From Succinivibrio sp. (GTDB lineage Bacteria > Pseudomonadota > Gammaproteobacteria > Enterobacterales > Succinivibrionaceae): 64,000 nt of DNA. The DNA lies in NCBI GenBank assembly GCA_017635415.1, contig JAGBLM010000072.1, positions 13,089 through 77,088 of the forward strand. The letters run 5' to 3'. Shown in pieces: positions 6,768-62,100 of this stretch. The translations under genes were made by a program, and so were the position numbers. The notes below the pieces were generated by a model, which saw only the letters and a list, made by a program, of their open reading frames with translations, searched no databases and was not told the origin of the DNA. Numbering within the stretch: position 1 is the first letter of the stretch; the number at the start of each line of letters is the position of its first letter.

Positions 6768-7514
6768 ATGAACTTTTTGGGTATCTTTCTTGCCATTGGC
6801 TGTATTCTCACCTCCATGATCCTGGAGGGAACACATCCTGGTATTTTGATCAACCTGCCTGCCTTCCTCGTAGTGTGGGGAGCTGCATTCTTTGCCTGTT
6901 TTGTGCAGTTTACTATCGGCGAGATCTTGGCCGGAGTCAAATGTTTCTTGTGGCTGCTGGCTCCGCCAAGACAGAATCTTGCCGCTCAGGTTGAGTTACT
7001 GGTTGGTCTTTCTACCACTGCCAGACAGCAGGGGTTGCTCGCTCTTGAAAATCAGATCGGTTCTGCAAGCGATGATTTCACACGTGATGGCATTCAGATG
7101 CTGGTTGATGGTGTTGACAAGGATACCTTAAAAGCACTACTTGAAAATGCCATCGATATTGAACAGGCCAAATACACCCCGTGCTGCAAGTTCTGGGAAG
7201 GTTTGGGCGGTTATGCTCCTACCATGGGTATTATCGGCGCCGTACTTGGTCTTATTCACGCCATGTCCCTGCTGGATCGCCCTGACCTGCTTGGACCTTC
7301 CATCGCCGTAGCATTCGTTGCTACTATTTACGGACTGGTTTTGGCTAATATTATCGCCCTTCCGGCTTCGGCCCGAATCAAGAATATAGCTTCGGGAATG
7401 GCTATCTACAAATACATGACTTTGGAAGGTCTGTTATCCATTGCTGCAGGCGAAAACACCATGATGATCAAACGTCGTATGGCTGTTTATACCGGTGAGA
7501 AGGCTGAAGGCTAA
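6768..7514 (+). CDS. motA: Flagellar stator A subunit (MotA/MotC/PomA family)
   Basis: ARQQGLLALE, GGYAPTMGIIGAVLGLI, AFVATIYG. Confidence 0.92.
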   Translation: MNFLGIFLAIGCILTSMILEGTHPGILINLPAFLVVWGAAFFACFVQFTIGEILAGVKCFLWLLAPPRQNLAAQVELLVGLSTTARQQGLLALENQIGSASDDFTRDGIQMLVDGVDKDTLKALLENAIDIEQAKYTPCCKFWEGLGGYAPTMGIIGAVLGLIHAMSLLDRPDLLGPSIAVAFVATIYGLVLANIIALPASARIKNIASGMAIYKYMTLEGLLSIAAGENTMMIKRRMAVYTGEKAEG

Positions 7515-7532
7515 CGAGCATAAGGGCGAGTT

Positions 7533-8756
7533 ATGAAGAAGGAACCAGAGGAGCACGTTAATCTAGAACGCTGGATGGTGTCGTATGCTGACTTTATGAC
7601 ACTGTTGTTTGCTCTGTTCGTGGTATTGTATTCCTTTGCCATGGCCAAGGCCTCAGAGGCACAGTCCATGGCGCAGAGCATTGCCGAATCCTTCGAATCC
7701 GGACTTATAAGTCAGTCAGGTGGTGTTCTGGTTGTTCCTGACAGTGTGGCTCAGCAACTTGCAGAAGAAGCTGAAAAGAGTGCTGAAAGCGGCTCTGGTG
7801 AGGCGCAGAAGGAATCAGTGCTCAACGGCGGTATGATAATGAATTTCACGTCTGCCGCTTCCGCAGCAGATCCTGATAGTGAATCTGAGGCCACGGGAGG
7901 AAACGATCAGGATATTGATGGCAGCAATGTTTCTGACTCAACGTCATCTTCAGGAGAGTTGGTAGTTTCAGACAACGTCAAATCCAACAGTCAGGCACCT
8001 ACTTCGCGAAATCCTGAAGGCGGCAATATGACTGGTGATGGTGGTATGACTCCGGGCGGTGATGCTGACGAGATTGCTGATGGTGGCCGTACCAGCGTGG
8101 ATACGGAAACGGTTGGTGAAGGAAAGAACGGAGCTCCTTTTGAGGCGGTAAGAGAGTCCGTATCGAACGGTATACAGGAAATGGGAATTGAAGATCAGGT
8201 TGATATTGAACAGGATGAGCACTGGCTGACCATCAATATTAATTCCGGCATGCTGTTTGCGGAAGGCAGCGCTTCTATTCTGACCGCTTCAAGGCCTATC
8301 ATCGCCAGGATTGCGGTGGTTCTCTCGGGCATTAACAATTACATCCGTGTCAGAGGTTACACGGACAATACCTTTGTTCCAGACGGCATCTATCGTAACA
8401 GTTGGGATCTTTCTGCTCAGCGCGCGGTCAATGTTCTGCTGGAGCTGAGTAACAACAACATTGATCCTAGACGTCTTGCTGTGGAGGCCTATGGCGAATA
8501 CTCTCCGTTCTTCTCCAACGGTACTTCTGCCGGCCGAGCTCAGAATCGCCGTGTAGTTATTGCCATTTCTCGTTATGCTATAGCCTCAAAGGATTTAAAG
8601 GTGGTAGACAGAGTTGATAACTCCTCGTTCGACAGAGGAGAAGGTAGCGCTGGCTTTGGTGGTACATCAGGCGGTCGCGGTCAGACGGCAGGACAGGGTA
8701 ACGTGGAAGTAGTCCACGGAGATGATAATACGGTTCTGCTTGATTTTTCTAACTAA
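7533..8756 (+). CDS. motB: Flagellar stator B subunit (MotB/MotD family) with long low-complexity linker
   Basis: WMVSYADFMTLLFALFVVLYS transmembrane helix; OmpA-like domain GYTDN..NSWDLSAQRA..NRRV. Confidence 0.92.
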   Translation: MKKEPEEHVNLERWMVSYADFMTLLFALFVVLYSFAMAKASEAQSMAQSIAESFESGLISQSGGVLVVPDSVAQQLAEEAEKSAESGSGEAQKESVLNGGMIMNFTSAASAADPDSESEATGGNDQDIDGSNVSDSTSSSGELVVSDNVKSNSQAPTSRNPEGGNMTGDGGMTPGGDADEIADGGRTSVDTETVGEGKNGAPFEAVRESVSNGIQEMGIEDQVDIEQDEHWLTININSGMLFAEGSASILTASRPIIARIAVVLSGINNYIRVRGYTDNTFVPDGIYRNSWDLSAQRAVNVLLELSNNNIDPRRLAVEAYGEYSPFFSNGTSAGRAQNRRVVIAISRYAIASKDLKVVDRVDNSSFDRGEGSAGFGGTSGGRGQTAGQGNVEVVHGDDNTVLLDFSN

Positions 8757-16811: not shown

Positions 16812-18698
16812 ATGGCAGACACCAATTTACCGGTATCAGCAAATCAGGAAGGAACTCCGGAGGAGTCCCTGCCTAATGCGCCTGTTGTTGCGGAAGATGC
16901 GACCGGTACCAGCGTTGCAGAAATACCCGACGAAGGCGAAACTGACAACAAGGCTGATAATGGTGGTGAGGAGCTGTACACTCACAGGCACGGTGTTTTT
17001 GCTACCATAAAGGATTTTGTAAAGAACGGTGAGACCATGCGTCGCATCGTTATTTTAGGTTTTCTTGTAATCTTTATCGGCGCCATTATTTTTACTATTG
17101 TCAGTCTGCAGTCTCCATCCTCAGAAGAAAGGACTGAGCGCATGCTGGGACATTATTCTCCTGCCGAAATCGGTCAGGTGCTTGATTACCTTGATGCCAA
17201 CAAATTTGAATATCGTCTTACGGGATCTGACACCATTGTCGTTAACGTCAAAGATTACAGCAAGATCACCGAAGGTATGCTGCGTAATGGCATCGCTCTA
17301 CCTGCTGAGCAGACTGATGAAGGTGATGCTATTTTGATGACTGACTCAGGCTTTGGTGTCTCGCAGCGTCTTGAAAATGAGCGTATCAAACACGGTAGAG
17401 AGATTCAGCTGGCCCGCGCCATTGAGCGTATTGACGGCATTGAGCATGCGACCGTACTCCTGGCAATTCCAAGAGATAATGTTTTTGCCCGTGAAAAGAA
17501 TCATCCGAGTGCCTCTGTTGTTCTTACCCTTAAGGGCAATGCCTATATCAGCCCTGAAAATGTAAATTCTGTGCGTTATATGGTGGCTTCCTCGGTCCAT
17601 AATCTGATGGCAAAGGATGTCACGGTAACCGATCAGTCCGGTCGTTTGCTCAGTGCTGAACCTAGAGGAGACAGCACTGAAAACAAACTGCAGAGAGATT
17701 TTGAGATGAGAACCATGCGTGAGGCCCAGTACAGGGATAAGCTTGATTCTATCTTAGGTCCGATGCTCGGACTGGGCAATTATTCTGCAGAGGTTGATGT
17801 CACCCTGGATACAACCGTTCAGGAGGAGACCTCTCAGCTTTACAATCCTGACAATCAGGCTATTCGTTCTGAAACATTGAGTGAAAAGACCGGCAATGAT
17901 GATAAGGGCAATCCTTACGGAGTTCCTGGTTCTCTGTCCAATCAGCCGCCGGCAAATGCGGCTATTCCACAGGAACTTAAAGACGGAACGGCAACGGCGA
18001 CCCGTGAATCGGCAAATAATCGTCAGGAAAGCAGAGAGGCTGTACGCAACTACGAGGTTGATACCACGGTAAGGCATACGGTAAGACCGTCTAATGTCGT
18101 ACAGCGTCTGACGGTTTCTGTAGCCGTTGACTATATGCGTCTTGTTGACGCTGACGGGCTGGTGTCATACGAGCCTCGTCCTCAGGAGGATCTTGATAAG
18201 ATTGCTGATCTTGTTCGTGGCGGTCTTGGACTTAATGAGAATCGTGGTGACGTGGTTCACGTTGAAACCGTGTCGTTCCCACATAATGACGACCTGCCTC
18301 CACAGCCTTGGTATATGCAGGATTACTTCTATCGTCTGGCACGTATCGGCGGTGCGGTACTTGTTATTCTGATTCTGGTTATCTTTGTAATAAGACCGAT
18401 GCTTAACAAACTGCTGCGCAAAGATGTCGGTGACGAAGATGCTGAACTTGATGAGGATCTGGATGGTAAGTCCGCTCTTGAAGGAAATGATGATCTTAAT
18501 CTCATTGCTCAGGATAACGAACTTGCCGATCAGGTATACACTATCAATCATGAAGGCGGAATAGAGTTGCCTAATCTGCATAAAGAGGCAGATCTGCTCA
18601 AGGCTGTCAGAACACTGGCTTCTGATGAACCTCAGCTGACAGCTGAAGTCATCAAGGAATGGCTTGAAGCAGACATGAACAAGGATAAATCCTCTTAA
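16812..18698 (+). CDS. fliF: MS-ring protein FliF
   Basis: Two TM helices, GFGVSQ, PSASVVL, GVPGSLSNQPP, RLTVSVAVD. Confidence 0.95.
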   Translation: MADTNLPVSANQEGTPEESLPNAPVVAEDATGTSVAEIPDEGETDNKADNGGEELYTHRHGVFATIKDFVKNGETMRRIVILGFLVIFIGAIIFTIVSLQSPSSEERTERMLGHYSPAEIGQVLDYLDANKFEYRLTGSDTIVVNVKDYSKITEGMLRNGIALPAEQTDEGDAILMTDSGFGVSQRLENERIKHGREIQLARAIERIDGIEHATVLLAIPRDNVFAREKNHPSASVVLTLKGNAYISPENVNSVRYMVASSVHNLMAKDVTVTDQSGRLLSAEPRGDSTENKLQRDFEMRTMREAQYRDKLDSILGPMLGLGNYSAEVDVTLDTTVQEETSQLYNPDNQAIRSETLSEKTGNDDKGNPYGVPGSLSNQPPANAAIPQELKDGTATATRESANNRQESREAVRNYEVDTTVRHTVRPSNVVQRLTVSVAVDYMRLVDADGLVSYEPRPQEDLDKIADLVRGGLGLNENRGDVVHVETVSFPHNDDLPPQPWYMQDYFYRLARIGGAVLVILILVIFVIRPMLNKLLRKDVGDEDAELDEDLDGKSALEGNDDLNLIAQDNELADQVYTINHEGGIELPNLHKEADLLKAVRTLASDEPQLTAEVIKEWLEADMNKDKSS

Positions 18699-18718
18699 GA
18701 GGGATAGGAGAGATAAAC

Positions 18719-19825
18719 ATGTCAGATAAGAATCTGCCATCTCCGGCCGGAGGGGCGGTAACTGCTCCCGGCGGCGGTGTTGGTTCCAGTGTTATGGAAC
18801 TGTCTGATGATGAAAAATCCGCATTGCAGAGCATGTCCGGTCTTGATAAGGCTGCTCTTCTGATGCTGTCTCTGTCAGAAGAAGATGCCGCACAGATTTT
18901 CCGTAATCTGCAGCCAAAGCAGGTGCAGAAACTTGGTATGCGCATGAGTGAGATGGCTAATTTTTCTCAGGATCAGGTCAATGGTGTGCATAAAAATTTT
19001 CTGCTTGATGTAACCAAACACTCTAATCTCGGACTTGGCAGTTCCGACTTCGTACGCCATGCTCTTGTTGCCGCCTTAGGTGAAGATAAGGCCAACAACC
19101 TTGTTGAGCAGATTTCTCTTGGTACCGGATCGCGCGGTCTTGATTCCTTAAAGTGGATGGATGCAAGACAGGTTGCCACTATTATTCAGAACGAGCACCC
19201 TCAGATCCAGACTATTGTGCTGTCCTACCTTGAGCCTGAACAAAGCGCCGAGATTTTGGCACAGTTCTCAGAAACGGTGCGTCTTGATCTGATTATGCGC
19301 ATTGCCACACTGGAAGAAGTTCAGCCTGCAGCATTACAGGAATTGAATGAAATTATGGAAAAACAGTTCGCCGGCTCAGCAGGTGCTCAGACTGCCAAGA
19401 TTGGCGGTCTGAAGAGTGCCGCTGATATCATGAACTTCCTTGATACCAATACCGAGACCACTCTGATGAATGCTATTCAATCTCAGGATAAGGAAATCGG
19501 TAATCAGATCCAGGATCTCATGTTTGTATTCGAAAACCTTGCCGGAGTTGACGACCGCTCAATTCAGACCCTGCTGCGTGATGTTCCAAGTGATATGTTG
19601 CAGAAGGCCCTTAAGGGGGCAGACGATGCTCTGCGGGAGAAGTTCTTCAAGAACATGTCAAGCCGTGCCGCTCAGTCCATGAAAGAAGACCTTGCTTCCA
19701 TGGGTCCTACCAAGATCTCTGAAGTCGAAGGCGCACAGAAGGAGATTCTTACTATTGCGCATAAACTTGCCGACGCCGGCACGATTATGCTCAGCAGTGG
19801 TGGTGGTAAGAGCGACTTCGTATAA
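18719..19825 (+). CDS. fliG: C-ring rotor protein FliG (canonical)
   Basis: KAALLMLSL, EHPQ, PAA, GG, MFVF, NMSSRAA. Confidence 0.97.
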   Translation: MSDKNLPSPAGGAVTAPGGGVGSSVMELSDDEKSALQSMSGLDKAALLMLSLSEEDAAQIFRNLQPKQVQKLGMRMSEMANFSQDQVNGVHKNFLLDVTKHSNLGLGSSDFVRHALVAALGEDKANNLVEQISLGTGSRGLDSLKWMDARQVATIIQNEHPQIQTIVLSYLEPEQSAEILAQFSETVRLDLIMRIATLEEVQPAALQELNEIMEKQFAGSAGAQTAKIGGLKSAADIMNFLDTNTETTLMNAIQSQDKEIGNQIQDLMFVFENLAGVDDRSIQTLLRDVPSDMLQKALKGADDALREKFFKNMSSRAAQSMKEDLASMGPTKISEVEGAQKEILTIAHKLADAGTIMLSSGGGKSDFV

Positions 19826-19894
19826 TTCAGCATACTGTTTTTTACGTCTGAACTGTGGTTCAGACGATTATTCTCGGACTATAAAGGCCACCTG

Positions 19895-21316
19895 ATGACT
19901 GATAAGGCAGCGTTGAAAACATCTCAAATGAAGTCTTCGGGAGCGGACGCGGCTAAAGGTAAAGGCGCCACAGCGTCGGCATCTGTCAAACTGCCGCTGC
20001 TTGAAGAAATCAACCATAAATTTCAGGGCTTCCTGTCACAGCGCCTTAAGGCCTTTTTGCTTCACGATGTTGGTGTTGAACAGGTATCCTTGTCGGTCCT
20101 AAAAGCTGAAGATTATCTTGCGGAGGCAAGGAAAAAAGCTCTGATCACTTCAAATAGCCTAAAACCTCTCGATGGAATGGTACTGATTACCATTGACAAG
20201 GGATTGCTTGACAGTCTGGTTGACAATTATTTCGGTGGTCATGGTGCATATACACGTGATGATCTGGGGATGGGGGTTTCTTTTGTTGAATACAGGATGG
20301 CGGAAAGATTGCTGTCCTCAATCTATTTGTCCTACGAAATTGTTTTCTCTCCTCTTAAGAATATTATGTTTGGTTTTGCCGGCTTTCAGGGTAATCCTCC
20401 TGAGGATAAGACGGTAAACCCGGCTGAGTCTCTGATAGTCAGCAGATTTAAGGTTGATACCGGCAGCGGCTGTTCCTTTTTTGAGATCTGTTTTCAGAAC
20501 AGAACAGTACTTCCCATAAAAAAAGATCTGGCAGGTGAGATACCTTCAGGATTTTTCAACAAACTTAACGCTCCTGCTGATGAGGAGAAGGAGGAGGAGA
20601 GTGAAGAGCAGGACGGCACGAAAAAATCCAGAGTTGCTATTCTTGCCAGATTAAAACCGGTTGCTTTAGCTTCTCTTATCAACAATGAACATCCACAGGT
20701 TAAGGCGGTGATCCTGTCCTCACTGAACCCGGAAATAGCTATAAAAGCCCTTACCCATGTTCCTTTTGCAGTTTTATCGTCACTGATCTCACGTATTTCA
20801 ACACTCAAGGAAATACCTTCCCTGGCAGGCTGCGATTTTAACTCCATCATCAAGGCAAATCTTATTAAGGTGAAAGAGGAAAAGACCACTTTAATAAACG
20901 GTATCAGATCTGCCGCCTCGCTTCTGAAACTGTTTCCTCAAAAAATCAGAGACCTTGTGCTCAAAAATATAAGTGCTCAGGAGCCTAAACTGGCCTTAAG
21001 CATCAGATACAGATTGGTGGAGTTTGAGGAACTGTTTAAACTTGATCCTCTGTCGCTGCAGGAACTTCTGCGTAACGTGAATTACAGTACGCTACAGTAT
21101 GCTATGAGTGTACTTGGGGCATCGCAAAGAGAGTTTCTTTATAAGAATATGTCGCGCAAAATATCAGATGAACTTAAAAAGGACCTTGCGGCGATGAAGC
21201 CGGTGGAAAAAAGTGTGGTTGCCAAGGCCAGGCAGGAAATACTGGACGTTGCCTGTTCTCTTGCTGATAAAGAGGCAATTGTTCTGATTGCTGAAAGTGG
21301 CGAAAAGGATAAATGA
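19895..21316 (+). CDS. FliM middle domain fused to FliG middle and C-terminal domains
   Basis: aa ~32-212 align with local FliM (YFGGHG vs FFGGEG; LKPLDGMVLITI vs FRPLKGTALITL); aa ~250-465 align with local FliG (NNEHPQVKAVILSSL vs QNEHPQIQTIVLSYL; KNMS). Confidence 0.85.
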   Translation: MTDKAALKTSQMKSSGADAAKGKGATASASVKLPLLEEINHKFQGFLSQRLKAFLLHDVGVEQVSLSVLKAEDYLAEARKKALITSNSLKPLDGMVLITIDKGLLDSLVDNYFGGHGAYTRDDLGMGVSFVEYRMAERLLSSIYLSYEIVFSPLKNIMFGFAGFQGNPPEDKTVNPAESLIVSRFKVDTGSGCSFFEICFQNRTVLPIKKDLAGEIPSGFFNKLNAPADEEKEEESEEQDGTKKSRVAILARLKPVALASLINNEHPQVKAVILSSLNPEIAIKALTHVPFAVLSSLISRISTLKEIPSLAGCDFNSIIKANLIKVKEEKTTLINGIRSAASLLKLFPQKIRDLVLKNISAQEPKLALSIRYRLVEFEELFKLDPLSLQELLRNVNYSTLQYAMSVLGASQREFLYKNMSRKISDELKKDLAAMKPVEKSVVAKARQEILDVACSLADKEAIVLIAESGEKDK

Positions 21317-21340
21317 CAGTAAAGATGGTGGAAATAGAGA

Positions 21341-22618
21341 ATGTCTGAGAAAAAGCCTGCTAAGAGCGGAGACTTAAGCCTTCAGGTGGTATCAGGAGAA
21401 GATATTGTCAACAATAATCCTGAAAGAGTTGATATCCGCTTTGATAAGCCTCTGGCAGAGGTACTTCGTGCCGAAGATGTCGGCAGTTATGAAGTTAAGA
21501 AATGGCCGATGCTGGAAGAGCAGGATTTATCTCCAACCAATGCTATAGGTTATCCTACGGGCGCGTGGTTCAAGAAAAAGAAAGAAGAGTTAAGACGTCA
21601 GAAAGAAGAAGAGGAAAAAGCGGCCAGGGAAGCCGAACTTGCTGCAGCAGCTCAGGCTGAAGAAGAGAGAAAAAAACAGGAAGAGCAGCTTACGGTTGAA
21701 AACCTTGAGAAGATTCAGCGTGAAGCCTACGAGGAAGGTCACCAGGAAGGTCTGCAGCAGGGAAATGCAGAAGGCTTTGCCCAGGGACTTGAAAAGGGGC
21801 ATCAGGAAGGCTTTGATAAAGGTGTCAATGAAGGATTGCAGAAAGGCTACGACGATGGCTATATCAAGGGACGTGAAGAAGGGTTCAGGAAAGGTCACGA
21901 GGAGGGGCTGCAGGGTGGAGAGAGCATTGTGCTAGAACAGGTTGAGCGGTTCAGGCATCTTGCTGACAAACTTGCCAATCCTCTTCGCGAGGTGGATCGG
22001 GATGTTACCGATGAAATTGTTTATCTTATTTCCCGTCTTGCCAAGGTGGTCATCGGACATGAGATCAAAGGTGATCTTGGTTATTTGAAAAACTCCTTGG
22101 ATAAGGCCATTGCCGTTCTGCCTAATGCTGACAAAGGTGCAAAACTGTATTTGAATCCTGATGATAAGGTTCTTATTGAAACATCCTTAGGCAAAGAATA
22201 TCTGCAAGAACAGAAATGGGATTTAAATGAAGATCCTGATCTGGACATCGGTGATGTGAAGGTAATCAATGAGGCCTCAACAGTAAACTGGCGTTTGAAT
22301 GACCGTATCGATTCTTTGCTTGAGGATTTCCTCGGCAATGCCTCGGTAGCAGTGGATAAGGCCCTTCGTGAAGATATTGAGGGTGCTCCTGGCTATGATG
22401 AGATCCCGCCGAAACCTTTAGCGCCACCTCCGGATCTGACCGCGGTGATGCAGAAACATATGCAGACTACAGTTGCCCCTGTCGTAGAGGATGTCAAGGC
22501 TGAAAATGTCAGTAGGGAAGCTGTTCAGCAGGAGAATGACGGAACTCTCAAGGAGGCTGAACGCGCCCTTTTGGAAGGAGCAGAAAAGAACGTGCTTTCC
22601 CAAGAGGAGGTTAAATGA
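21341..22618 (+). CDS. fliH: Flagellar export protein FliH
   Basis: Long AxxxG(xxxG)n repeat, YLNPDD; overlaps the fliI start. Confidence 0.9.
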
Positions 22619-24054
22619 ATCTTCTCGCTGAGCGTTTGCGTTCCATTGAAATTCCAGAACAGGAAGTATCTCCGGTCCTGACCGGTTACCTGACAAGAGT
22701 GGTGGGACTCACACTTGAGGCCAGAGGTATCAAGGTACCATTAGGTCAAAGATGCAGAATTGACACCGTTGAGGGACCTATGAGTGCTGAAGTAGTGGGC
22801 TTTTCCGGCGATACCACCTACCTGATGCCAACAACAGAGATCAGCGGCGTACAGAGTGGTGATACCGTTACCCCTGTGAAAGGTTTGGATACCTATCCCT
22901 ACGGTGATCATCTTTTGGGCAGAGTACTTGACGGCATCGGAAACCCTATTGACGGCAAGGGTCCGCTGGTGGCAAGTACTGCCACCAGATGGCGTCCGTC
23001 CAAGATCAATCCGATGGCCAAAAAGCCTATTAAGCAGCCTCTTGATGTCGGGGTAAGAGCGATTAACGCTCTGCTGACCATCGGTCAGGGACAGCGTATG
23101 GGACTGTTTGCCGGTTCCGGTGTAGGTAAATCTGTGCTCCTGGGCATGATGACCAGAGGATCTGCTGCTGATGTTGTCGTTGTCGGTCTGGTGGGCGAGC
23201 GTGGTAGAGAGGTTAAGGAGTTTATTGAGGATATTTTAGGTCCCGAAGGTAGAGCCAGAAGTGTGGTCATTGCCGCACCTGCCGATGCTTCTCCACTTAT
23301 GAGACTTAAGGGCTGTGAAACGACCCTCGCTATAGCTGAATATTTCAGAGATCAGGGGCGTAATGTGCTACTGCTGATAGATTCTCTGACCCGTTATGCC
23401 ATGGCCCAGCGAGAAATAGCTCTCGCGGTCGGAGAACCGCCGGCAACAAAAGGTTATCCTCCTTCTGTTTTTGCCAGACTGCCAGCTCTGGTGGAACGCG
23501 CCGGTAACGGAGCAGAAGGGCAGGGGTCCATTACCGCCTTTTTTACTGTTCTGGTCGAAGGTGATGATCTTCAGGATCCGATCGCCGATTCAGCACGAGC
23601 GATTCTGGACGGTCATATCGTTTTATCGCGTAAGCTTGCCGATGCCGGGCATTATCCTGCTATTGATATTGAAAAATCAATAAGCCGTGTTATGCCAGCG
23701 GTGGTCACGCAGGATCATCTTATTATGGCCAGAACCATAAGACAGTGTCTTGCCCAATATAATCAGAGCAGTGAACTTATCCAGATTGGTGCCTATCAGA
23801 AAGGATCGGATCCGAGAATTGACCAGGCTATAATGATTAAACCTTATATCGATGAATTCTCGCAGCAGGATTTTCGTGCGGTAATTCCCTATGCGCAGTC
23901 TCTTGAGGAATTAAAACAGTTATCGATGATTCTCGTACAGGATGCCCAGGAAAAGGTGAATGCTCTGCAGCAGAGTCAGGGACAGTTGCAGCCTCCTAAT
24001 GCTCAGACCGGGCATAAACCTGTTGCCTCTATGCAGTTTAACCGGACAAATTAG
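22615..24054 (+). CDS. fliI: Flagellar export ATPase FliI
   Basis: [40 protein letters not shown]. Confidence 0.97.
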
Positions 24055-27067: not shown

Positions 27068-28117
27068 GTGACAGAGATTTTAAGTCAGGAAGAGATTGAT
27101 GCTCTGCTGCACGGCGGAGCAGATGAGGTTGAACCTGACGAGCCGAAGGACGACAGTGGTGTCAAATCGTTTGATTTTGGCTCCCAGGAGCGTATTGTCC
27201 GCGGTCGTATGCCGACTCTGGAACTGGTCGACGAACGTTTTGCCAGACACATGCGTATCAGTCTGTTCAACATGATGAGGCATACTGCTGAAGTCACCTG
27301 GAACGGTGTGGAAATGAAAAAGTTCGGTGAATATACGCAGGAACTGTATGTTCCGACCTCACTGAATATGGTTCGTTTCAGACCGTTAAAGGGTACTGCA
27401 CTTATCACTCTTGAGGCGAAGCTGGTTTTCATTCTGGTGGAAAACTTCTTTGGCGGTGAAGGCAGATTCAGAACAAAAATTGAAGGCCGTGAGTTTACAC
27501 CGACCGAACGCCGAATCATCCAGAAACTCCTGAAAATGGTGTTTGGAGACTATAAGGAAGCATGGTCTCCGGTGATGGATGTTGAATTTGAGTATCTTGA
27601 TTCTGAAGTTAACCCGGCTATGGCCAATATCGTCAGTCCAAGCGAGGTGTTGGTCGTAAACAAGTTCCATATTGATCTGGACGGTGGCGGCGGAGACATG
27701 CATATCTGTTTCCCTTATTCCATGATTGAACCGATTCGGGAACTGCTCGATGCCGGTGTGCAGAGTGATAAGGGTGACACTGATGTGCGCTGGAATAAGG
27801 CCCTGCGTGAAGAGGTTATGGACGTCAATGTTGACATGAGGGTTAAGCTTCTCGATACCGAAGTCTCTCTTCAGGATGTTATGAACTTCAAGCCTGGCGA
27901 CATTCTGCAGGTAGATATTCCGGATGATCTTCTGGTTTATATAGAAGAGTTGCCGAGTTACCATGCAAAACTTGGCAGGACACAGGATAAACTTGCCATC
28001 AAGATAAGCAAGGTTCTGGAACGTCCTCAGTCAATGAAGAGTGATATGACCTTCCTCAAGGGTAACGGTGTTGCCATTAACGATGAAGATGATATTGAAG
28101 ATTTCGATGACGATTAA
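27068..28117 (+). CDS. fliM: C-ring switch protein FliM (canonical)
   Basis: LSQEEIDALL CheY-binding peptide, FFGGEG, C-terminal SPOA domain. Confidence 0.97.
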   Translation: MTEILSQEEIDALLHGGADEVEPDEPKDDSGVKSFDFGSQERIVRGRMPTLELVDERFARHMRISLFNMMRHTAEVTWNGVEMKKFGEYTQELYVPTSLNMVRFRPLKGTALITLEAKLVFILVENFFGGEGRFRTKIEGREFTPTERRIIQKLLKMVFGDYKEAWSPVMDVEFEYLDSEVNPAMANIVSPSEVLVVNKFHIDLDGGGGDMHICFPYSMIEPIRELLDAGVQSDKGDTDVRWNKALREEVMDVNVDMRVKLLDTEVSLQDVMNFKPGDILQVDIPDDLLVYIEELPSYHAKLGRTQDKLAIKISKVLERPQSMKSDMTFLKGNGVAINDEDDIEDFDDD

Positions 28118-29789: not shown

Positions 29790-30059
29790 ATGGAGCCGGA
29801 AGTTTTTGTTGATATTGTCAGACAGGCTCTTGGTCTGGTGGCCATTTTGGTCTCCGCATCGATTCTGCCTTCCCTATGCGTAGGTTTATGTGTTTCGATT
29901 TTTCAGGCGGCGACTTCGATTAACGAACAGACTCTGTCTTTTCTGCCGCGTCTTATAGTGACAGTGCTGGCCCTGATGGTAGGTGCCCATTGGGGACTTG
30001 AAAAACTGATGACCTTCTTTTTCAATATGGTCGAGATGATTCCGCAGGTAATTGGGTAA
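29790..30059 (+). CDS. fliQ: FliQ
   Basis: FQAATSINEQTLSFLPR. Confidence 0.96.
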   Translation: MEPEVFVDIVRQALGLVAILVSASILPSLCVGLCVSIFQAATSINEQTLSFLPRLIVTVLALMVGAHWGLEKLMTFFFNMVEMIPQVIG

Positions 30060-30856
30060 TGGAAGGGTTAGAAGGCCTTACTATGGCCTCTTTAGCTTCA
30101 ATAATCTGGCCGTTCTGCCGAATCGGCGGCTTCTGCATGAATATGTTTGTCTTCAGCGGCGCTGCCGTGCCTCCAGTGGTCAGAGTATGGTTCTCCCTGA
30201 TGTTTGCCATCTGCATTCTGCCTGATATCCCTCCTGTTGAAAATCCGATGGCACTGTTCTCCCTTTACGGAGCACTGGTAACGGTAAAAGAAATTCTGAT
30301 TGGTATGGCCTTGGGTTATCTGACACAGTTTCTGGCACAGGTGTTCATCATTGCCGGTCAGGCTGTTGCCATGCAGACCGGTTTGGGCTTTGCCTCACTG
30401 GTAGATCCGGTTTCAGGCACCAACACTCCGGTAGTCGGTCAGTTTTTCTCGGTCTTGACCACGCTGGTTTTTTTGGCCATGAACGGTCATCTGCTGTTTT
30501 TCAGAATGCTGGAAATGTCCTTTAGCACACTGCCGATCGGCGTCAGTTTTTTGCCTCCTGACGGTATACATGACCTGACATATTTTGGCAGTACCATGTT
30601 CTTATGCGGTCTGGTGATGGCAATAAGTTCCATATGTACCATGCTCGTTGTCAATTTTACTCTGGGTGTCATGACCAGAGCTGCGCCGCAGCTGAACATC
30701 TTCTCTTTAGGTTTTGCCGTGACCATGGTGACAGGCATGTTTGTGCTTGCAGCTTCGCTTAATGCCTATATGAACAACTATACTCATGCAATCAATGAGG
30801 TCATCTCGACGGGATGTACACTTATAGGCACAAGTTGTGAGGGGATTTTCGATTAA
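30059..30856 (+). CDS. fliR: FliR
   Basis: QTGLGFASLVDP, RAAPQLNIFSLGF. Confidence 0.96.
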   Translation: MEGLEGLTMASLASIIWPFCRIGGFCMNMFVFSGAAVPPVVRVWFSLMFAICILPDIPPVENPMALFSLYGALVTVKEILIGMALGYLTQFLAQVFIIAGQAVAMQTGLGFASLVDPVSGTNTPVVGQFFSVLTTLVFLAMNGHLLFFRMLEMSFSTLPIGVSFLPPDGIHDLTYFGSTMFLCGLVMAISSICTMLVVNFTLGVMTRAAPQLNIFSLGFAVTMVTGMFVLAASLNAYMNNYTHAINEVISTGCTLIGTSCEGIFD

Positions 30857-30917
30857 AATTAACGCAAGTACTGATGGTAGACGGACGAATAGTTGTTAAT
30901 CGTACTTCAGTCTTACG

Positions 30918-30962
30918 GACTGCACCTCAACCTCTGCTACAGAGAAGAATGCAGGTGCAGTC
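30918..30962. terminator. Hairpin between convergent fliR and ppnN
   Basis: GACTGCACCT...AGGTGCAGTC, 10-bp inverted repeat. Confidence 0.5.
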
Positions 30963-30991
30963 ATTTGCAAAGAAATGCAGGTTATGTTCTG

Positions 30992-32368
30992 TTAATCATC
31001 CTCAAGAACATAGCAAGGTTTGTACTCTCTTTTCGACAGTAGAATACGACCCTGATCAATAAAGTCCTTAAGCAGCTGATCCATACTCTGGATAATCTCC
31101 TTATCCCCGTGCAGTTTAAATGGACCTTTTTCCGCAACAAGCCTGACTCCTTTCTCCTTTACATTGCCTGATACAATACCTGAGAAAGCTGCTCTTAAGG
31201 CTGCCGAAAGTTCGTAAGGCTCCTGATCTTTATGGAGATTCAGTTTTGACATATTCTCATGAGTTACCTCAAACGGGATCTGCAGACTTTCAGGAATATG
31301 GAGAGCCCAGTTATAACAGAACGAATCATGGGTGAGTGATCTGTGCTCATAGGTATTTTGCAGTTCAGTCTTAACTTCTCTTGCCACCGCATCAGGATCG
31401 TCGATGATAAGTTTGTAGTAGCGGGTTACCTCAGGACCGAAACATTTCTTCAAGAATGCCTCGAGTGTATTGAAGTAAGGTGCACTATCCTTATTGCCTG
31501 TAAGAATGAGAGGTGTTGGTATATGACGGTTTTCTTTACACATTTTGATAGTAAGGATGTAAAGCAATTCCTCAGCCGTACCAGGACCTCCGGGGAAGAC
31601 GACCAGCACATGTCCCAGCCTTACGAAAGCTTCAAGACGTTTTTCGATATCCGGCATGATAACGAGCTCAGATACCATGGAATTTGGAGGCTCAGCGGCA
31701 ATAATCGAAGGTTCGGTAAGACCAATCAGTCTGCACTGTTCGGTTGCTGACTGCATGGTATGACCCATAATGGAACCCTTCATTGGCGCTTCCATAATGC
31801 CTGGTCCACAGCCGGTGCAGATATCAATTTTGCGCAGTCCCATGGCAAAACCAACCTGATAGGCGTATTCATATTCCTCCTCTGAGATGGAGTGACCACC
31901 CCAGCAGACGGCAATGTTTGGTGCTACACCAACCTGCAAAGTTCCGGCATTGCGCAGAATAGTGAATATACCGTTGGTAATCAGTTCACTGCGACTTGCT
32001 TTATCTTTCTGGATTATTTTTCTGAACTGATCCGCGTAAGGATTGATTTGCACAATATCACGCAGAACAGAGTAGAGGTGATTACGCAGACTGAAGACAA
32101 TTTTTCCGTCAACAAACGCCGATTTAGGAGGATTGATAAGTTCTATCTTCAGTCCTCTTTCGGTTCTGATAACATTGATTTCAAAGTTCTCATAATTCTC
32201 GAGCAGTTCTTTGGAATTATCTGTTTTGTTGCCGCTGTTCAAGACGGCAAGAGAACAGTTACGATAAAGATTATAAAGTTCACCCTGCGACGTATGAGAA
32301 ATAAGATCCGCTTCAAGCTGAGTCAGCAGGGACATTGAACCTGCCGGCCAAACAAATTCTACACTCAT
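30992..32368 (-). CDS. ppnN: Nucleotide 5'-monophosphate nucleosidase PpnN (YgdH, LOG family)
   Basis: RNCSLAVLNSG, CWGGHSI, CTGCGPG, PGGPGTAEE. Confidence 0.92.
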   Translation of the reverse strand: MSVEFVWPAGSMSLLTQLEADLISHTSQGELYNLYRNCSLAVLNSGNKTDNSKELLENYENFEINVIRTERGLKIELINPPKSAFVDGKIVFSLRNHLYSVLRDIVQINPYADQFRKIIQKDKASRSELITNGIFTILRNAGTLQVGVAPNIAVCWGGHSISEEEYEYAYQVGFAMGLRKIDICTGCGPGIMEAPMKGSIMGHTMQSATEQCRLIGLTEPSIIAAEPPNSMVSELVIMPDIEKRLEAFVRLGHVLVVFPGGPGTAEELLYILTIKMCKENRHIPTPLILTGNKDSAPYFNTLEAFLKKCFGPEVTRYYKLIIDDPDAVAREVKTELQNTYEHRSLTHDSFCYNWALHIPESLQIPFEVTHENMSKLNLHKDQEPYELSAALRAAFSGIVSGNVKEKGVRLVAEKGPFKLHGDKEIIQSMDQLLKDFIDQGRILLSKREYKPCYVLEDD

Positions 32369-37589: not shown

Positions 37590-38801
37590 ATGAATAGAAC
37601 AATTAAGTATCTTGTTGGTGGAACTGTCTTCCTGACAGTACTTTACTGTGCAGGAGTAGGAGTTGGAGCATATTATTCTGATACTTTGATAAATGACGGT
37701 CTGGTTTCTCTGAACAAAGTATTGGAAGAAAAATATTCTGAACATGTGCTGCCAAAGTTAAGCACTAAATATGTTGCTGAAGAAAAAGGCTTCTTTTCAC
37801 AGAAGGGTAATTTTTTAATTACCAACGCAGATTCCGGGCAGGTTGTATCTTTACCATCCGAATTCTGTCACGGTTTTCTCTCGCTGAAAGGCAGAGTAGA
37901 TTTTTATCATTTCCTCAATAATCTTTTCCTTAAGAAAGGAGTACTTGATTTACACAGTGAAGCGTATGCTGATGTGAGTTTCAGACTTTTTCCTTATGAC
38001 TATTCGCTTGCTATAAAGGTTGATGGTCCTTATGCGGCTAATTATTTAAAACAAGATCCGAAGCGTCTGTCAGGATACAGCAAAAAACTTCATTCCCTGT
38101 TAAGACTGCACGGCGGTATGACAGGAAGACTTGATGCCTCATTTGAGGCCTGTAACGTAGTTACTACTGATTTTACGGCTGACAGAATTTTCTTCAACGG
38201 AGTTAATATCTTTAATGCAGAAACCACAAAAGGAAATATGCAGTTTGGTATTAAGGGAATGTATGCTCACAATACATTCTACGATGAGGTTGATGATGTT
38301 GGTGTGTCGCTGTTGTTGGATGACGACTCTGTCGGCAGTACATCAGTTGAGATGAAACTTGAGCTTGATACCTCAAGAGGAAAGTTGAGTGCCGAGGGGG
38401 TGCTCGGTAAATTTAATGGTGAACAGGTTAAAAAACATCATGGTCTGTTTTTAGATCTATTAGGTCAACCTTTAAGTTTTAACCGTTATTTTGATGAAAA
38501 GGGTGGTAGTTTTACCTTAAAACAGCTTGTATTTTACGCCGATTACACGGCGCCTGAGGGCAGAGTTCAGTATGTTGCCACCGCAAAGGGAAAAGTTGTT
38601 ATTCCTCAGGCGGATAATGTCGTCATCAGCGCCCAGAAGATAAACGGCAATGTCGAAGTCAGGTTCGATAAGGTTAATCAGGCTGCTGAAAAGACCATTG
38701 ATAGCATCGGCAGACATCTTTTTGAGAAGGATGCTGGCGGATATGTATCAAAGATCACTATAGAAAATGGTAAATTACTGTACAACGGTAAAGAGTATTA
38801 A
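37590..38801 (+). CDS. Hypothetical membrane-anchored protein, weakly YdgA/DUF945-like
   Basis: N-terminal anchor, EKGFFSQ, C-terminal [14 protein letters not shown]. Confidence 0.55.
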
Positions 38802-43687: not shown

Positions 43688-45208
43688 CTATGAACTCTTG
43701 GTGGTTTTTGTAGTACCAAGCACAGAGTTAAGATAACTTAACTTGGTATTATAGTTTGTCATTAAGCTATCAACGGCAGCATACTTGTTTCTGAGCATGG
43801 ATTCATAATTAGTCAGGTTTTCAGTATACTTGGACTGCTTCTCTTCAAGATAACTTACGCTGGAGTTAATACTATCCTTGCGTTTGTCGAGAACTCCTGC
43901 TGATTTTGTAAAATCGTTAAGATACGAATCAATCTTGGTGAGAAGACTATTTTCTCCGGAAAACAGTTCAACTACACTGTTATAGTTTTCCGACAAGGCC
44001 TTGTTGAACTTCGTTGAATCTAAGGAAATTGTGCCGTCCTTCTTGAAATTAAGTCCAGCACTGAAGATGGTCAGACCTTCTGAGACATTTGAATCAGATG
44101 AAATCATTCTCTGCAGTGTCTGTTTGATACCGATTGCCTGAGCATCACCTGCCAAATCCCCTCCATCATCGTTTGACACTCCGTCAGTGTAGGTGTTACG
44201 GGCAGTCAGTGTGTCAATCTGACTTACAAGCAGATTATATTTGGTGACAAAGGCCTGCATTTTCTCGGTAACGGCTTCTGAGTCAGTGCCGACAGAAACA
44301 CTGTAAACCTTGCTTTCGGTATTTGCTTTAGTAGTACCGTCTTCAAGGGTGGTATAGGTCGTCTCTGATGGAGAGACTTTATTAACCGTAATACTTAAAC
44401 CGGATATCTGACCCTGATCAAAGGTATTAGAATGAGAAGTGATTTTTTCACCGTCTACCTCAATAACGGCGTCTTTGCCTCGACTGTGGGTCCATCCTGA
44501 GTCAGATGTATAAGAAGACTCATCATCGCTTGCATAAGTGTGGGTTTCGTAGTCAAAAACCGATAGAGCGGTTTTCTCCGCATCTGTTCCTGTAGTTGTA
44601 GTACTGATAGAAAGCTGAGTAGCGTCTTTACCTGTTGTGGCGCTGGTGAAACTGAACTTATAGCCCTCATCTGTACTGACGATATTGGCAGTAATACCAA
44701 GATCGTTTTTGTTTATTTTTTTTCTGATCTTTTCAAGAGTATCTCCATCCTCGATTTTTACATCGAAACTGCCCAAATCATTACCTTCATCATCTTTGCC
44801 AAGAGAGATGGTCATGGTTCCGGCAGAGAAACTGTTATTGAAGGACTCTTTATTAAATGTTTTTGATAATTTTTCAGATGACGCCAACTGCTTTACGCTA
44901 AGCGAGAAATCCATATTTGCAGCATCATCTTCTGCCGTTACAGTGAAAACGTTGTCCTCCCCCTGATCTGTGGTGACTTTTCGCGCATTAAAGGCATTGT
45001 CTTTAAGCAATTCACCAACAGAATCCTTAAATGTGGACAAAAAACTCTTCAGCGAAGATACTGCCGAAATTTCGGTATTTTTTTCAGTAATCTGCGTGGC
45101 AACTTTGTTGACAGTCTTTATTTTCCTATCTGAAACAAGGGCACTAATGACGCTTTCGAAGTCTACGCCCGAGCCTATGCCTGCAGAAGTGATTGTTGTT
45201 GAGGCCAT
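43688..45208 (-). CDS. fliD: Flagellar filament cap FliD
   Basis: ITSAGIGSGVDFESVISALV, VKQLA, DAVIEVDG, FVTKYN, LAGD. Confidence 0.92.
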   Translation of the reverse strand: MASTTITSAGIGSGVDFESVISALVSDRKIKTVNKVATQITEKNTEISAVSSLKSFLSTFKDSVGELLKDNAFNARKVTTDQGEDNVFTVTAEDDAANMDFSLSVKQLASSEKLSKTFNKESFNNSFSAGTMTISLGKDDEGNDLGSFDVKIEDGDTLEKIRKKINKNDLGITANIVSTDEGYKFSFTSATTGKDATQLSISTTTTGTDAEKTALSVFDYETHTYASDDESSYTSDSGWTHSRGKDAVIEVDGEKITSHSNTFDQGQISGLSITVNKVSPSETTYTTLEDGTTKANTESKVYSVSVGTDSEAVTEKMQAFVTKYNLLVSQIDTLTARNTYTDGVSNDDGGDLAGDAQAIGIKQTLQRMISSDSNVSEGLTIFSAGLNFKKDGTISLDSTKFNKALSENYNSVVELFSGENSLLTKIDSYLNDFTKSAGVLDKRKDSINSSVSYLEEKQSKYTENLTNYESMLRNKYAAVDSLMTNYNTKLSYLNSVLGTTKTTKSS

Positions 45209-51991: not shown

Positions 51992-52198
51992 AGGGCGATT
52001 GACTGTACGTCCGTGCCGCAGGGCAGAAATTTACCGCTAATGTGGTCGCTGGACTGCCTGGTAATAAAAGTCCTGATTTAATAGATTTACGCCTGTAACT
52101 CTAAAGTCTGAAAATGATGTACGATTACAGGTTACGCTTGGTAATCAGAACCCCTCGGAATTGCCCGGGGCGCAGTCAGAAAAACGAAAAGTCGCTCT
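51992..52198 (+). ncRNA. Candidate structured RNA or leader, family unknown
   Basis: Ends pair (AGGGCGATT/AGTCGCTCT; TGACTG/CAGTCA) and enclose several hairpins; GC-rich island in AT-rich spacer. Confidence 0.45.
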
Positions 52199-52236
52199 TA
52201 AAACAACGAACAAAATTTAGCCATCAGGAGCCGAAT

Positions 52237-52695
52237 ATGTCAGATATTGAAAACGACGATATCGCAAAGAATGAAGATAATCTTGCCCCTCCTCCGGGAA
52301 GCGATTATGAAGTTGCTTTTACATATCACTCAGATACACAACTCGAAAGAGCTTATGATAAGGCTGATCATTGGGTTAAAGCTGGCGTGCGTCCGAACAA
52401 GATCTTTTTGGAAGATCGTTCGATGGGTGTTATCAATTTCCGTAAGGTAATGAAAGATCCTCTTCTGATTGAAGCAGGTGTTGAGCGTATGGTTGATTTC
52501 CGTTGTTCGCTGACATTATCTGATACTGATGTTGATGCTGTTTTCTCAAGCGTCTGCTATTATGAGAGCGGTACTGAACCGACTTATATCAATGCGTATG
52601 ACCCTGAATTAAACAGTATTAAAGAGGTTTTGAACATGGTAAGTAACAATTTGTTTACTTATCTGCAGAAGCCTCTTATGCATGCTGATGCTTAA
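52237..52695 (+). CDS. Hypothetical protein (possibly DUF4468-like)
   Basis: ATG after AGGAG; AYDKADHWV...IFLEDRSMGVI pattern; family match is weak. Confidence 0.7.
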   Translation: MSDIENDDIAKNEDNLAPPPGSDYEVAFTYHSDTQLERAYDKADHWVKAGVRPNKIFLEDRSMGVINFRKVMKDPLLIEAGVERMVDFRCSLTLSDTDVDAVFSSVCYYESGTEPTYINAYDPELNSIKEVLNMVSNNLFTYLQKPLMHADA

Positions 52696-55030: not shown

Positions 55031-55936
55031 ATGGCGTTGTATATATCAAACATAGCGTCGTTGCGTGCGCAGAACTCCTTCAATAAGACCACCAGGGCTC
55101 TTGATACCACTTATCAGAGACTGTCAACCGGTCTTAGGATTAATTCTGCCAAAGACGATGCGGCAGGATTACAAATCGCCAACCGTATGACTTCTCAAAT
55201 CAATGGGTTAAAGCAGGCCAACCGTAATGCAAGTGACGGTGTAGCGCTTGCTCAGACCATTGAAGGTGCCCTCGATGAAATAACCAATATGCTGCAAAAG
55301 ATTCGAACTTTGTCGATACAGGCGGCGAACGGGGTAAATACAACGGCCGACAGACTGTCAATAAATGAGGAGGTAAGGCAGTACTGCGAAGAAATTACGA
55401 GGATCTCATGCAGTACGACTTACGGTGGTGCAAAGATTTTATGCGGACTTGCCAATTCCGCAGGACACAGTACTCTGTTAGATTCCCGTGGTGCTATAAG
55501 TCTTCAGGTTGGTCCTAACGCCAATAATACAATTTCCATAACAGGGCTTGATCAGGGATTTTCTCTGTCAGCTATAGCAAATATGGCGGGGATTGCTTCG
55601 GCAACCGGTTACAATACTGATGATGGGTATGCTCGTTTTTCCATGACCTCTGCTGAGGGGGCGCAGAGTACCTTAGGAATAATAGACAGATTTATCAGCG
55701 TGGTAGACAGCAAACGCGGCAGTCTTGGAGCTGTGCAGAACAGACTTGAATCTGCCATCAGACTTAACGAAACCATGCACATAAATATGTCAGATGCCCG
55801 CTCTCGGATCATGGAAACTGATTATGCAGAAGAAGCTTCCAATCTGGCTTCTCTGTCTATTCTGCAGCAGGTTGCTGTTGCCATGATGCAAAGAATCAAC
55901 AGCAGCAAAGATATGATTTTAAAACTGCTCTCATAA
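55031..55936 (+). CDS. Flagellin (short, divergent C-terminus)
   Basis: RLSTGLRINSAKDDAAGLQIA, RGSLGAVQNRLE, SRIMETDYAEE. Confidence 0.95.
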   Translation: MALYISNIASLRAQNSFNKTTRALDTTYQRLSTGLRINSAKDDAAGLQIANRMTSQINGLKQANRNASDGVALAQTIEGALDEITNMLQKIRTLSIQAANGVNTTADRLSINEEVRQYCEEITRISCSTTYGGAKILCGLANSAGHSTLLDSRGAISLQVGPNANNTISITGLDQGFSLSAIANMAGIASATGYNTDDGYARFSMTSAEGAQSTLGIIDRFISVVDSKRGSLGAVQNRLESAIRLNETMHINMSDARSRIMETDYAEEASNLASLSILQQVAVAMMQRINSSKDMILKLLS

Positions 55937-61569: not shown

Positions 61570-62100
61570 ATGCAGTATTTACTCAAAATAACAATAAAGA
61601 ACACTCCGGTTTGGCGCCTGATTGCAGTCGATGGCTCTGCTGATCTGTGCTTTGTGGCTGAACTTATTGCCAAATCATTTGATTATCGACCGGGGAAAAG
61701 ATGCTTTATCGTTCAGGACCACAGGATAACTGCTGGAAACGGCGGAGAGCCAACAGTTCCTGCTGAGCTGAAGGCATTTGATTCTCTGGGACTCAAACAG
61801 GGGGATTTTTTATCATTTGAGGTGTCTTTGCCAGAGAAACTTGATCATTCAATTGAGGTGATGAAGGTCGAAGACCATCTCTATTGTCTGATGCCTTCAT
61901 GTCTGGTCGGGGTAGGACTGCTGCCAAAAGGGGAGCTTAGTGCCGGGGCGATAGCTGATTATTATGACAGTGAGGATAATCCAGGGCTTGATCTTAAAGA
62001 AGTTACAAACCGTCTGCGCGCATATGGATCAAAGCGGAGTGATGTCAGCAAATCCATGGTCGCAGCAGGAGCAGAGCCTCTGAAATTTTCATTACAATAA
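61570..62100 (+). CDS. pRiA4b ORF3-like protein
   Basis: YLLKITIKNTPVWRLIAV...IAKSFD N-terminal motif. Confidence 0.6.
   Translation: MQYLLKITIKNTPVWRLIAVDGSADLCFVAELIAKSFDYRPGKRCFIVQDHRITAGNGGEPTVPAELKAFDSLGLKQGDFLSFEVSLPEKLDHSIEVMKVEDHLYCLMPSCLVGVGLLPKGELSAGAIADYYDSEDNPGLDLKEVTNRLRAYGSKRSDVSKSMVAAGAEPLKFSLQ

Follow-up and report, generated by a model that had tools for sequence, protein, structure and literature searches.

Organization of the locus and domain content of the extra gene

The analysed stretch of Succinivibrio sp. DNA (64,000 nucleotides, hereafter the window) contains an additional open reading frame of 473 aa between the flagellar switch genes fliG and fliH, and it raises the question of what this frame encodes, where it came from, and what its product might do in a motor whose fliG and fliM are both intact. 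The gene (P0001; 19895..21316, + strand) is a single open frame flanked by canonical fliG (18719..19825, +) and by fliH (21341..22618, +), which in relatives is located directly 3' of fliG, while canonical fliM (27068..28117, +) is found 5.75 kb downstream. An earlier note on this DNA had described the frame as a fusion of the FliM middle domain with the middle and C-terminal domains of FliG. Both Pfam and BLASTP analyses agree with this description, and every motif pair quoted in the note is present. FliM (PF02154) matches aa 32–211 (67.6 bits, cut-off 27), and its E-value of 1.8e-18 settles the check on the N-terminal half that the note had proposed; FliG_M (aa 257–310; E-value, 8.8e-12) and FliG_C (aa 358–464; E-value, 3.1e-22) are likewise above their cut-offs. 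In BLASTP comparisons, the fusion shares 27% identity with residues 47–233 of the window FliM over 187 aa with no gaps, and 32% identity with residues 116–366 of the window FliG over 251 columns. The two canonical genes, probable parents of the C-terminal (fliG) and N-terminal (fliM) halves, are intact and score above the cut-offs of TIGR00207 (310 bits) and TIGR01397 (373 bits). The fusion itself remains below the cut-offs of both full-length equivalogs (116.7 bits against 226.7 for FliG, and 74.2 bits against 219.6 for FliM). Judged by the features that define these two families, the fusion is neither a FliG nor a FliM.

The first ATG is the likely start, since the MTDKAALK beginning is common to the fusion and its sister orthologue. 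The N-terminal 31 aa (19895..19987, +) are disordered (pLDDT <50 at aa 1–27) and are followed by the FliM middle (CheC-like) domain (aa 32–218; 19988..20548, +), which keeps the YFGGHG loop (aa 112–117) and has lost the next, EGREFT, loop. Downstream of an acidic linker (aa 219–247; 20549..20635, +) that is length-polymorphic within the species, the FliG middle domain with helix MC (aa 248–330; 20636..20884, +) retains EHPQ (aa 265–268) and R300, the equivalent of E. coli R160, and reads SLA in place of PAA. The Gly-Gly hinge, now NG, and the FliG-CN armadillo occupy aa 331–373 (20885..21013, +), and 9 out of 10 hydrophobic positions are kept there. In FliG-CC (21014..21292, +), MFxF is replaced by LVEF, and alignment to E. 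coli FliG and 64 native FliG sequences revealed an altered torque helix with S405, K422, K429, D430, K435 and E438 at the positions of E. coli K264, R281, D288, D289, G294 and R297.

The loss of the FliG N-domain, the CheY-binding peptide and the SPOA domain, as claimed earlier, was borne out by Pfam and a pattern scan. No FliF-binding FliG N-domain above the cut-off was detected in the fusion, where aa 32–211 are FliM instead; FliMN_C (SPOA) has no Pfam match in it, the only SPOA matches of the genome being fliM and fliN; and the CheY-binding LSQxEIDxLL pattern is absent from its N-terminus. A weak FliG_N match (E-value, 0.005, below the cut-off; aa 267–360) overlaps the M and C domains and was rejected as a cross-match. 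Both docking motifs, GGxG and EHPQ, are kept in the two known lineages, in the window protein as YFGGHG and E265 H266 P267 Q268, again as the note had it. CheY-P phosphatases of the CheC/FliY type have the active-site pattern D/S-x3-E-x2-N-x22-P. Assignment of the fusion to this type was rejected: E37-x2-N40 is present, as in many ordinary FliM, and the upstream D/S and downstream Pro are missing.

The 69-nt gap between fliG and the fusion contains a terminator-like hairpin (19845..19866, +), which may tune expression of the fusion. With a z of −1.35, the 81-nt stretch has an unremarkable folding energy, and promoter-like motifs near the fusion show no excess (4 against a shuffle mean of 9.0).

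An assembly chimera, the artefact that the note had asked to be checked, is ruled out by a contig of 43,715 bases from an independent study (run X5), which spans the gene and covers window positions 18600–22700; it differs by 16 substitutions and by the in-frame loss of 3 nt from the acidic linker. Four runs, each from a different study, were aligned to this interval; X5 alone spans it whole, the other three doing so in pieces. Run X5 also contains another organism, in which fliG is joined to fliH and the fusion is absent.

Distribution among relatives

A word-indexed search (7,996 scored candidates) revealed one orthologous cluster, P0004/P0018/P0019, that is 62% identical to the fusion, and the sole addition from an exhaustive profile search across 1.84 billion representatives was a fragment of 99 aa (P0140, 82% identical). 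The orthologue P0018 and a FliH (P0021, 82% identical to the window FliH) have a common longest contig of 94,639 bases, which suggests that they come from one sister lineage. No match to the DNA of this lineage was found in JGI metagenome scans or GTDB contig scans, and the fusion-region DNA with a recorded habitat originates from gut or sheep metagenomes. No RNA data set was among the records listed with this DNA, which speaks neither for nor against expression.

The fusion was not found in 97 other genomes of the family (E-value threshold, 1e-36) or in 300 genomes of the order (1e-38). In a FliM search at an E-value of 1e-5, a second match was obtained only in the genome of the window, the other 97 having either one match (82) or none (15). 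In all 55 family genomes where both fliG and fliH were seen (79 had a fliH match), the gap between the two genes was estimated at less than about 460 nt, which is too small to contain the fusion gene. The nearest relative (G091), with FliG, FliM and FliH 90%, 92% and 60% identical to those of the window, has such a small gap and lacks the fusion. The fusion is confined to a very small clade, and its absence from the nearest relative and from the 97 family genomes indicates that Succinivibrio motors can do without it.

Residues kept and changed

Residues were compared in E. coli numbering against 64 native FliG and 57 native FliM sequences. Both fusion lineages keep FliG EHPQ, R160, G195, F236, D289 and P295, and FliM N129, F131, G132, G133 and G135 (N111-x-F-G-G-x-G in the fusion). 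Changed in both are FliG P169, G194 (N or S), M233-F234 (LV), K264 (S), R281 (K), D288 (K), G294 (K) and R297 (E), as well as FliM R60, R63, H64 and the EGREFT loop that follows GGxG. Among these, P169, G194, M233, F234, K264, R281, D288 and R297 are invariant or nearly so in the 64 native FliG (the GG pair, M233, F234 and F236 each occur in 64/64) and are altered identically or in kind in the two lineages. The hinge reads NG in the fusion and SG in its sister, MFxF reads LVEF and LVGF, respectively, and the stator-facing K264, R281, D288, D289 and R297 are S, K, K, D and E in both lineages and in fragment P0140.

Identity between the lineages, 62% overall, rises to 15 of 18 positions around GGxG and to 21 of 26 in the torque region, and 69 of the 93 FliG-CC positions are conserved between them. 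Hydrophobic positions are kept at 24/31 in FliG-M, 9/10 in FliG-CN, 23/25 in FliG-CC and only 38/58 in FliM-M, and conserved charged positions at only 10/29 in the FliG part and 10/28 in the FliM part. As many as 83 positions conserved in the natives (44 + 39) carry a residue that is common to both lineages and absent from the natives. The net charge of the FliG part is +9 and +8 in the two lineages compared to −12 in native FliG; a value of +5 or higher was found in none of 113 canonical FliG and none of 107 fusions from distant bacteria.

Among the stator-facing charges, R281, D288 and D289 rank as primary and K264 and R297 as secondary, the secondary pair being selectively needed for counter-clockwise speed (PMC6079164). 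In chimeric Vibrio-type motors, K284A and R317D, which correspond to K264 and R297, lower counter-clockwise rotation from 4.3 to 1.1–1.3 Hz, and clockwise rotation stays at 3.2–5.5 Hz (PMC6079164, Table 1); D289 and residue 281 are the partners of MotA R90 and E98 (PMC6079164). Vibrio G214S, at the position of G194, is counter-clockwise-biased (PMC11853002). The sister protein has Ser at this position, and the solved Vibrio construct 8z4d likewise has SG at the hinge. A loop that contacts CheY in the clockwise ring, 'loop α3-α4', has been described (10.1101/2024.04.30.591856), and we take the EGREFT loop to be its equivalent. As the EGREFT loop is lost and the CheY peptide is absent, both CheY contacts appear to be lost. 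The altered stator-facing charges and hinges argue against a plain torque-producing spacer and for a damper or bias modulator. Out of the roles listed in the earlier note (spacer, switch-bias modulator, brake, clutch, chaperone), the spacer of this plain kind thus loses ground, and the damper or bias modulator appears to be favoured.

Selection on the fusion

When neutral drift was simulated down to 62% identity, 9 stops accumulated on average, and none of 1000 pairs remained stop-free. Where the two lineages share a residue, the column is preferentially one of low entropy in 113 canonical FliG (p 0.0004). In the same test with 80 distant fusions as the reference, the p values were 0.026 (FliG-M), 0.15 (FliG-C) and 0.16 (FliM-M); with close natives they were 0.07 and 0.19. 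The positions conserved between the two FliM halves do not follow those of the family (p 0.16–0.19). Within the species, 14 substitutions, 7 synonymous and 7 non-synonymous, correspond to a pN/pS of 0.35 (p 0.047; some of the substitutions are from low-depth contigs). It is likely from these sequence comparisons that the fusion is under purifying selection, looser than that on fliG or fliM. The gene is missing from the nearest relative genome examined, but its frame is intact in two lineages and selection looks purifying. None of the grounds on which the earlier note would have given up its reading applies: the FliM match is significant, evolution does not look neutral, the gene is no chimera, and no published description was found.

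Predicted structure

In the AlphaFold2 model of the fusion, both halves are folded (mean pLDDT 80), and the N-terminus and linker are disordered. The top structural matches of the model are FliM and FliG chains, with a target-normalised TM of 0.92 to Vibrio FliM-M (7dm9). A separate model of aa 28–329 has a pTM of 0.85, to which likeness to solved and training structures contributes, FliM-M/FliG-M being a textbook pair; since FliM-M makes up only about 60% of this chain, the relative placement of the two domains is confident. The linker is predicted to let FliG-M sit on FliM-M within the chain, that is, to allow intramolecular docking of GGxG on EHPQ.

Recurrence in distant bacteria

When 27 long or odd profile-search matches were scanned, 15 were found to contain FliM, FliG_M and FliG_C together. 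A profile was then built from 14 fusions, and its best 120 matches were listed. The two sets together yielded at least 107 spirochaete-type clusters of 586–731 aa in which all three domains are present; rows that were incomplete or of another build were left out of the count. The names among the 107 clusters are six Spirochaetota and, in one cluster, a member labelled Deltaproteobacteria, and the sampled spirochaete-type fusions group with canonical spirochaete FliM in the tree. The view that the architecture is uncharacterised, expressed in the earlier note, holds in so far as no published description was found, but the architecture is not unique.

The likeness between the window fusion and the uncharacterised Spirochaetota fusions (~600–640 aa; e.g., P0384, named Spirochaeta isovalerica 'FliM'), as well as the shorter P0141, P0157 and P0232, consists in the order FliM-M then FliG-M/C, the retained EHPQ and the lost torque triad. 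R281, D288 and D289 occur together in none of the 107 distant fusions, 71 of which keep none of them, compared to 109 out of 113 canonical FliG. The distant fusions keep EHPQ (Gln in 107/107), GG, R160 and MFxF, and, as in the window fusion, the CheY peptide is absent from most of them, being present in only 4 of the 107. The Spirochaetota-type proteins differ from the window fusion in their longer linker and in being acidic rather than basic; they retain K264, R297 and MFxF, which the window fusion has lost, and have lost R281 and D289, which it partly keeps. These differences in residue detail fit independent routes to a similar end, and the FliM–FliG fusion design probably arose separately in spirochaetes and in this gammaproteobacterium.

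Other arrangements were also seen among the distant proteins. Natural FliF–FliG fusions of 630–870 aa are represented by P0152, P0161, P0171, P0208 and P0223; P0194 and P0217 have FliM joined to FliG including its N-domain; P0142 consists of FliM, DUF4116 repeats, FliG-M and two FliG-C, and P0276 of FliG-M and two FliG-C. The gene for P0141 (L135:7970–9517) lies beside helicase-like and ATPase-like frames, and no flagellar gene was recognised in the 9.6 kb seen, the neighbours being judged from sequence. For the gene context of P0384, no match was obtained in the GTDB scan, and 0 of 218 matching plasmid records cover 80% of P0384.

Origin of the fusion

Profile scores of the FliG half are highest for the FliG of the core Succinivibrio clade (median 129 bits, n = 42), followed by the deeper family (118), other families (105), canonical FliG of other groups (96) and the distant fusions (56). 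The FliM half gives the same order, with 87 for the core clade, then 75 and 73, and 23 for the distant fusions. Of 33 columns in which the core clade is distinct from its outgroups, the fusion has the core state in 12, the outgroup state in 3 and neither in 18 (p 0.035; some of the states may be ancestral). Its GC3 (0.44) is similar to that of its neighbours.

In maximum-likelihood trees, the fusion is found on a long stem (1.58 changes per site) outside the gammaproteobacterial FliG/FliM cluster, and more than one placement is compatible with the data. The AU test on concatenated halves does not reject grouping with core Succinivibrio (p-AU 0.16); descent or transfer from spirochaete-type or P0141-type fusions was rejected on the concatenated tree (p-AU 0.016 and 0.014) and by low profile scores. 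With the FliG half alone, a joint clade with spirochaete-type fusions has a p-AU of 0.32, and none of the four finished placements is rejected. All fusions lie on one side of a branch with support 88 in the concatenated tree, which was built without canonical non-gamma pairs and so speaks neither for nor against their grouping.

The gene order offers a simple route. If a segment with one end within fliG and the other within fliM were duplicated in tandem, exactly a fliM'-'fliG junction would result, and it is this match that points to such an event; subsequent loss of the first fliH–fliL copy would leave the observed order fliF fliG [fusion] fliH I J K L fliM, with rapid divergence afterwards. 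The acidic linker is likely what is left, at the junction of the duplication, of the connector between the N and M domains of FliG, although taken alone its homology to FliG is not significant against shuffles (p 0.42–0.61), nor is that of the fusion N-terminus to the FliM N-terminus. At the junction, residue 233 of FliM is the last one matched, and the match to FliG can begin around its residues 109–116; both parents read Ser-Asp in frame there, which, as a trace of duplication in the sequence, is suggestive only. The dS between the window genome and G091 is 1.6–2.0, so birth of the fusion after that split needs an early burst of change; the alternative is an older birth with losses elsewhere.

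Proposed role and competing explanations

The accessory rotor component postulated in the earlier note, unable to anchor to FliF or FliN or to catch CheY-P, is in keeping with the domain and motif content of the predicted protein. The reading preferred here, to which we give a probability of roughly 40%, is that the fusion is a single-chain, stripped-down C-ring unit that joins the switch ring in low numbers as a CheY-blind, weak-torque insert and slows or biases the motor. The protein would be expressed from the fli operon, would close the FliM–FliG contact within itself by the predicted docking, and would enter the ring via the armadillo stacking surfaces of its FliG part, since no other contacts between subunits are clearly kept. 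Once inserted, it would be deaf to CheY-P, would lean to the counter-clockwise pose due to the G194 change, and would yield poor counter-clockwise torque due to the K264 and R297 changes, while D289 and the Lys at 281 may still engage stators. Such an insert in the middle and upper sub-rings would damp both switching and counter-clockwise torque.

A 34-mer C-ring on a 33-mer MS-ring is reported (PMC11087270), which makes a ring slot without FliF conceivable. Counting against the ring insert, the bottom spiral is domain-swapped, and a unit lacking FliM-C/FliN would open a gap in it (10.1101/2024.04.30.591856). Furthermore, the surfaces of the fusion are heavily remodelled and their charge is reversed beyond any canonical FliG, so that a fit into the native ring is not assured, and the mutant phenotypes drawn upon are those of single changes, in whole rings, in other species.

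It is possible, if rather doubtful, that the fusion instead acts off the motor as a soluble decoy or assembly regulator, which titrates free FliG or FliM or caps growing FliG polymers and so limits C-ring assembly, flagellar number or timing. In favour of this, the protein has lost both ring anchors and retained the docking motifs and the armadillo hydrophobics, and a basic FliG part (+9) could favour binding to acidic native FliG (−12). However, EHPQ and GGxG would not be free to titrate partners if occupied within the chain, as the model predicts, and conservation of the whole FliG-CC between the lineages (69/93) goes beyond the need of a simple decoy.

An unlikely explanation is that the gene is a decaying relic of the tandem duplication, with no real job and under weak selection only, e.g., for read-through to fliH. 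Its very narrow distribution fits this, as does its divergence: it is ~30% identical to its parents while FliG and FliM are 90–92% identical to those of the nearest relative, and with a stem of 1.58 changes per site the average amino-acid rate would be near neutral if the gene was born after the G091 split. Nevertheless, two lineages that are 62% identical both have an unbroken frame, whereas about 9 stops would be expected from neutral drift; the pN/pS of 0.35 and the kept hydrophobic cores also speak against decay, as does the loss of the same residues in independent fusions.

To much the same degree, it is improbable that the protein was re-purposed for a new partner outside the switch ring, such as a polar landmark, a signalling protein, nucleic acid or a membrane surface bound at the new basic face. 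This would account for the wholesale charge reversal of the FliG part, unseen in canonical FliG or the distant fusions, and for the lineage-common, non-native residues at 83 natively conserved positions, but the gene is still inside the basal-body operon and the FliM–FliG contact motifs are among the most conserved parts of the fusion. Finally, it is very improbable that the protein is a functional additional rotor unit, which would widen the ring or provide further torque sites and be paired with an altered stator: D289 is kept and residue 281 is still basic, but D288 and R297 are charge-reversed and K264 is lost, the sole flagellar MotA found has the R...GLLxLE stretch that we take to be usual, and no charge-swapped stator was found in the 69%-complete genome, where the only other MotA/ExbB-family match is TolQ-like by sequence and neighbours.

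Comparison with known systems

YcgR and EpsE are motor brake and clutch proteins that bind the rotor from outside. The outcome proposed for the fusion, slower or biased rotation, is alike, but the proteins are unrelated, the fusion being made of rotor parts without a c-di-GMP domain. The FliG–FliM–FliN C-ring and the FliG-MC:FliM-M complex (PDB 4fhr, 4qrm, 3soh, 4fq0; Salmonella rings 8umd, 8umx, 8wiw) have the same folds and the same FliM-M/FliG-M contact motifs as the fusion. In contrast to the canonical arrangement, the fusion is one chain, FliM then FliG, without FliG-N, the FliM N-peptide and SPOA, with changed hinge and torque residues, and it is additional to the intact genes. Borrelia FliG1 (PMC7225975) is likewise an extra switch component, and the Campylobacter FliN/FliY duplication (PMC6946799) a duplicated one, beside the canonical set, but neither is a FliM–FliG fusion. 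No description of a natural FliM–FliG fusion was found in the accessible parts of the literature searched (including PMC11087270 and PMC4642947), which covers few subscription journals. Thus, the parts are well known, and what is new is probably an independent gammaproteobacterial case of an undescribed recurring design.

Few motor proteins are as conserved or as well studied as FliG and FliM. The design apparently has more than one origin, and in every case the torque helix is degraded, which points to an undescribed way of regulating the motor. As a tentative generalization, bacteria may have repeatedly and independently built an intrinsic motor governor from the rotor itself, a single-chain FliM–FliG unit in the C-ring that is blind to CheY-P and has a crippled torque helix; the Succinivibrio gene would be a young gammaproteobacterial instance, its birth by duplication readable in the gene order and its substitutions copying laboratory switch and torque mutants. 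This instance belongs to a narrow, uncultured clade, and we infer its function. The fusion could serve as a probe of whether the C-ring accepts a unit without a FliF or FliN anchor, which touches on the ring-symmetry mismatch, of the number of signal-blind subunits needed to alter cooperative switching, and of speed tuning by diluted torque sites.

The surrounding flagellar region

Besides the switch genes, the window contains flhG, fliA, cheY, cheZ, cheA, cheB, motA, motB and cheW, with flhA upstream on the contig, which identifies a polar-type flagellar region. A single flagellar stator pair was found, consisting of a short MotA of 248 aa and a MotB (window 6768–8756), and it is encoded in the chemotaxis operon between cheB and a parA-like gene. 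FliH (425 aa; 21341–22618) carries a long extension at its N-terminus, is rich in GxxxG repeats and ends in an acidic/proline tail. Long FliH proteins (about 360–490 aa) are common among the relatives listed, which bear the name Succinivibrio sp.

Full-length flhB was not found in the 69%-complete assembly (G000), the only FlhB C-domain match being on C73 (window 30059–30992 concerned). Matches to flhB are present in 41 of 43 other genomes of the genus, mostly on contigs separate from fliF–fliR, and the absence here is likely due to a missing contig. About a third of the genus has a second FlhB-family copy of roughly 350 aa; three members (G002, G005 and G098) have no FliH or FliM match and contain a lower-scoring FlhB-family gene of roughly the same length. 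These genes of roughly 350 aa possibly belong to a non-flagellar type III secretion system. Three frames of the window, 37590–38801 (403 aa), 52114–52695 (193 aa) and 61570–62100 (176 aa), have no Pfam match at an E-value of 1e-5. The genes for FliD and a 301-aa flagellin (43688–45208 and 55031–55936, respectively) are located away from the main flagellar operon, among metabolic genes.
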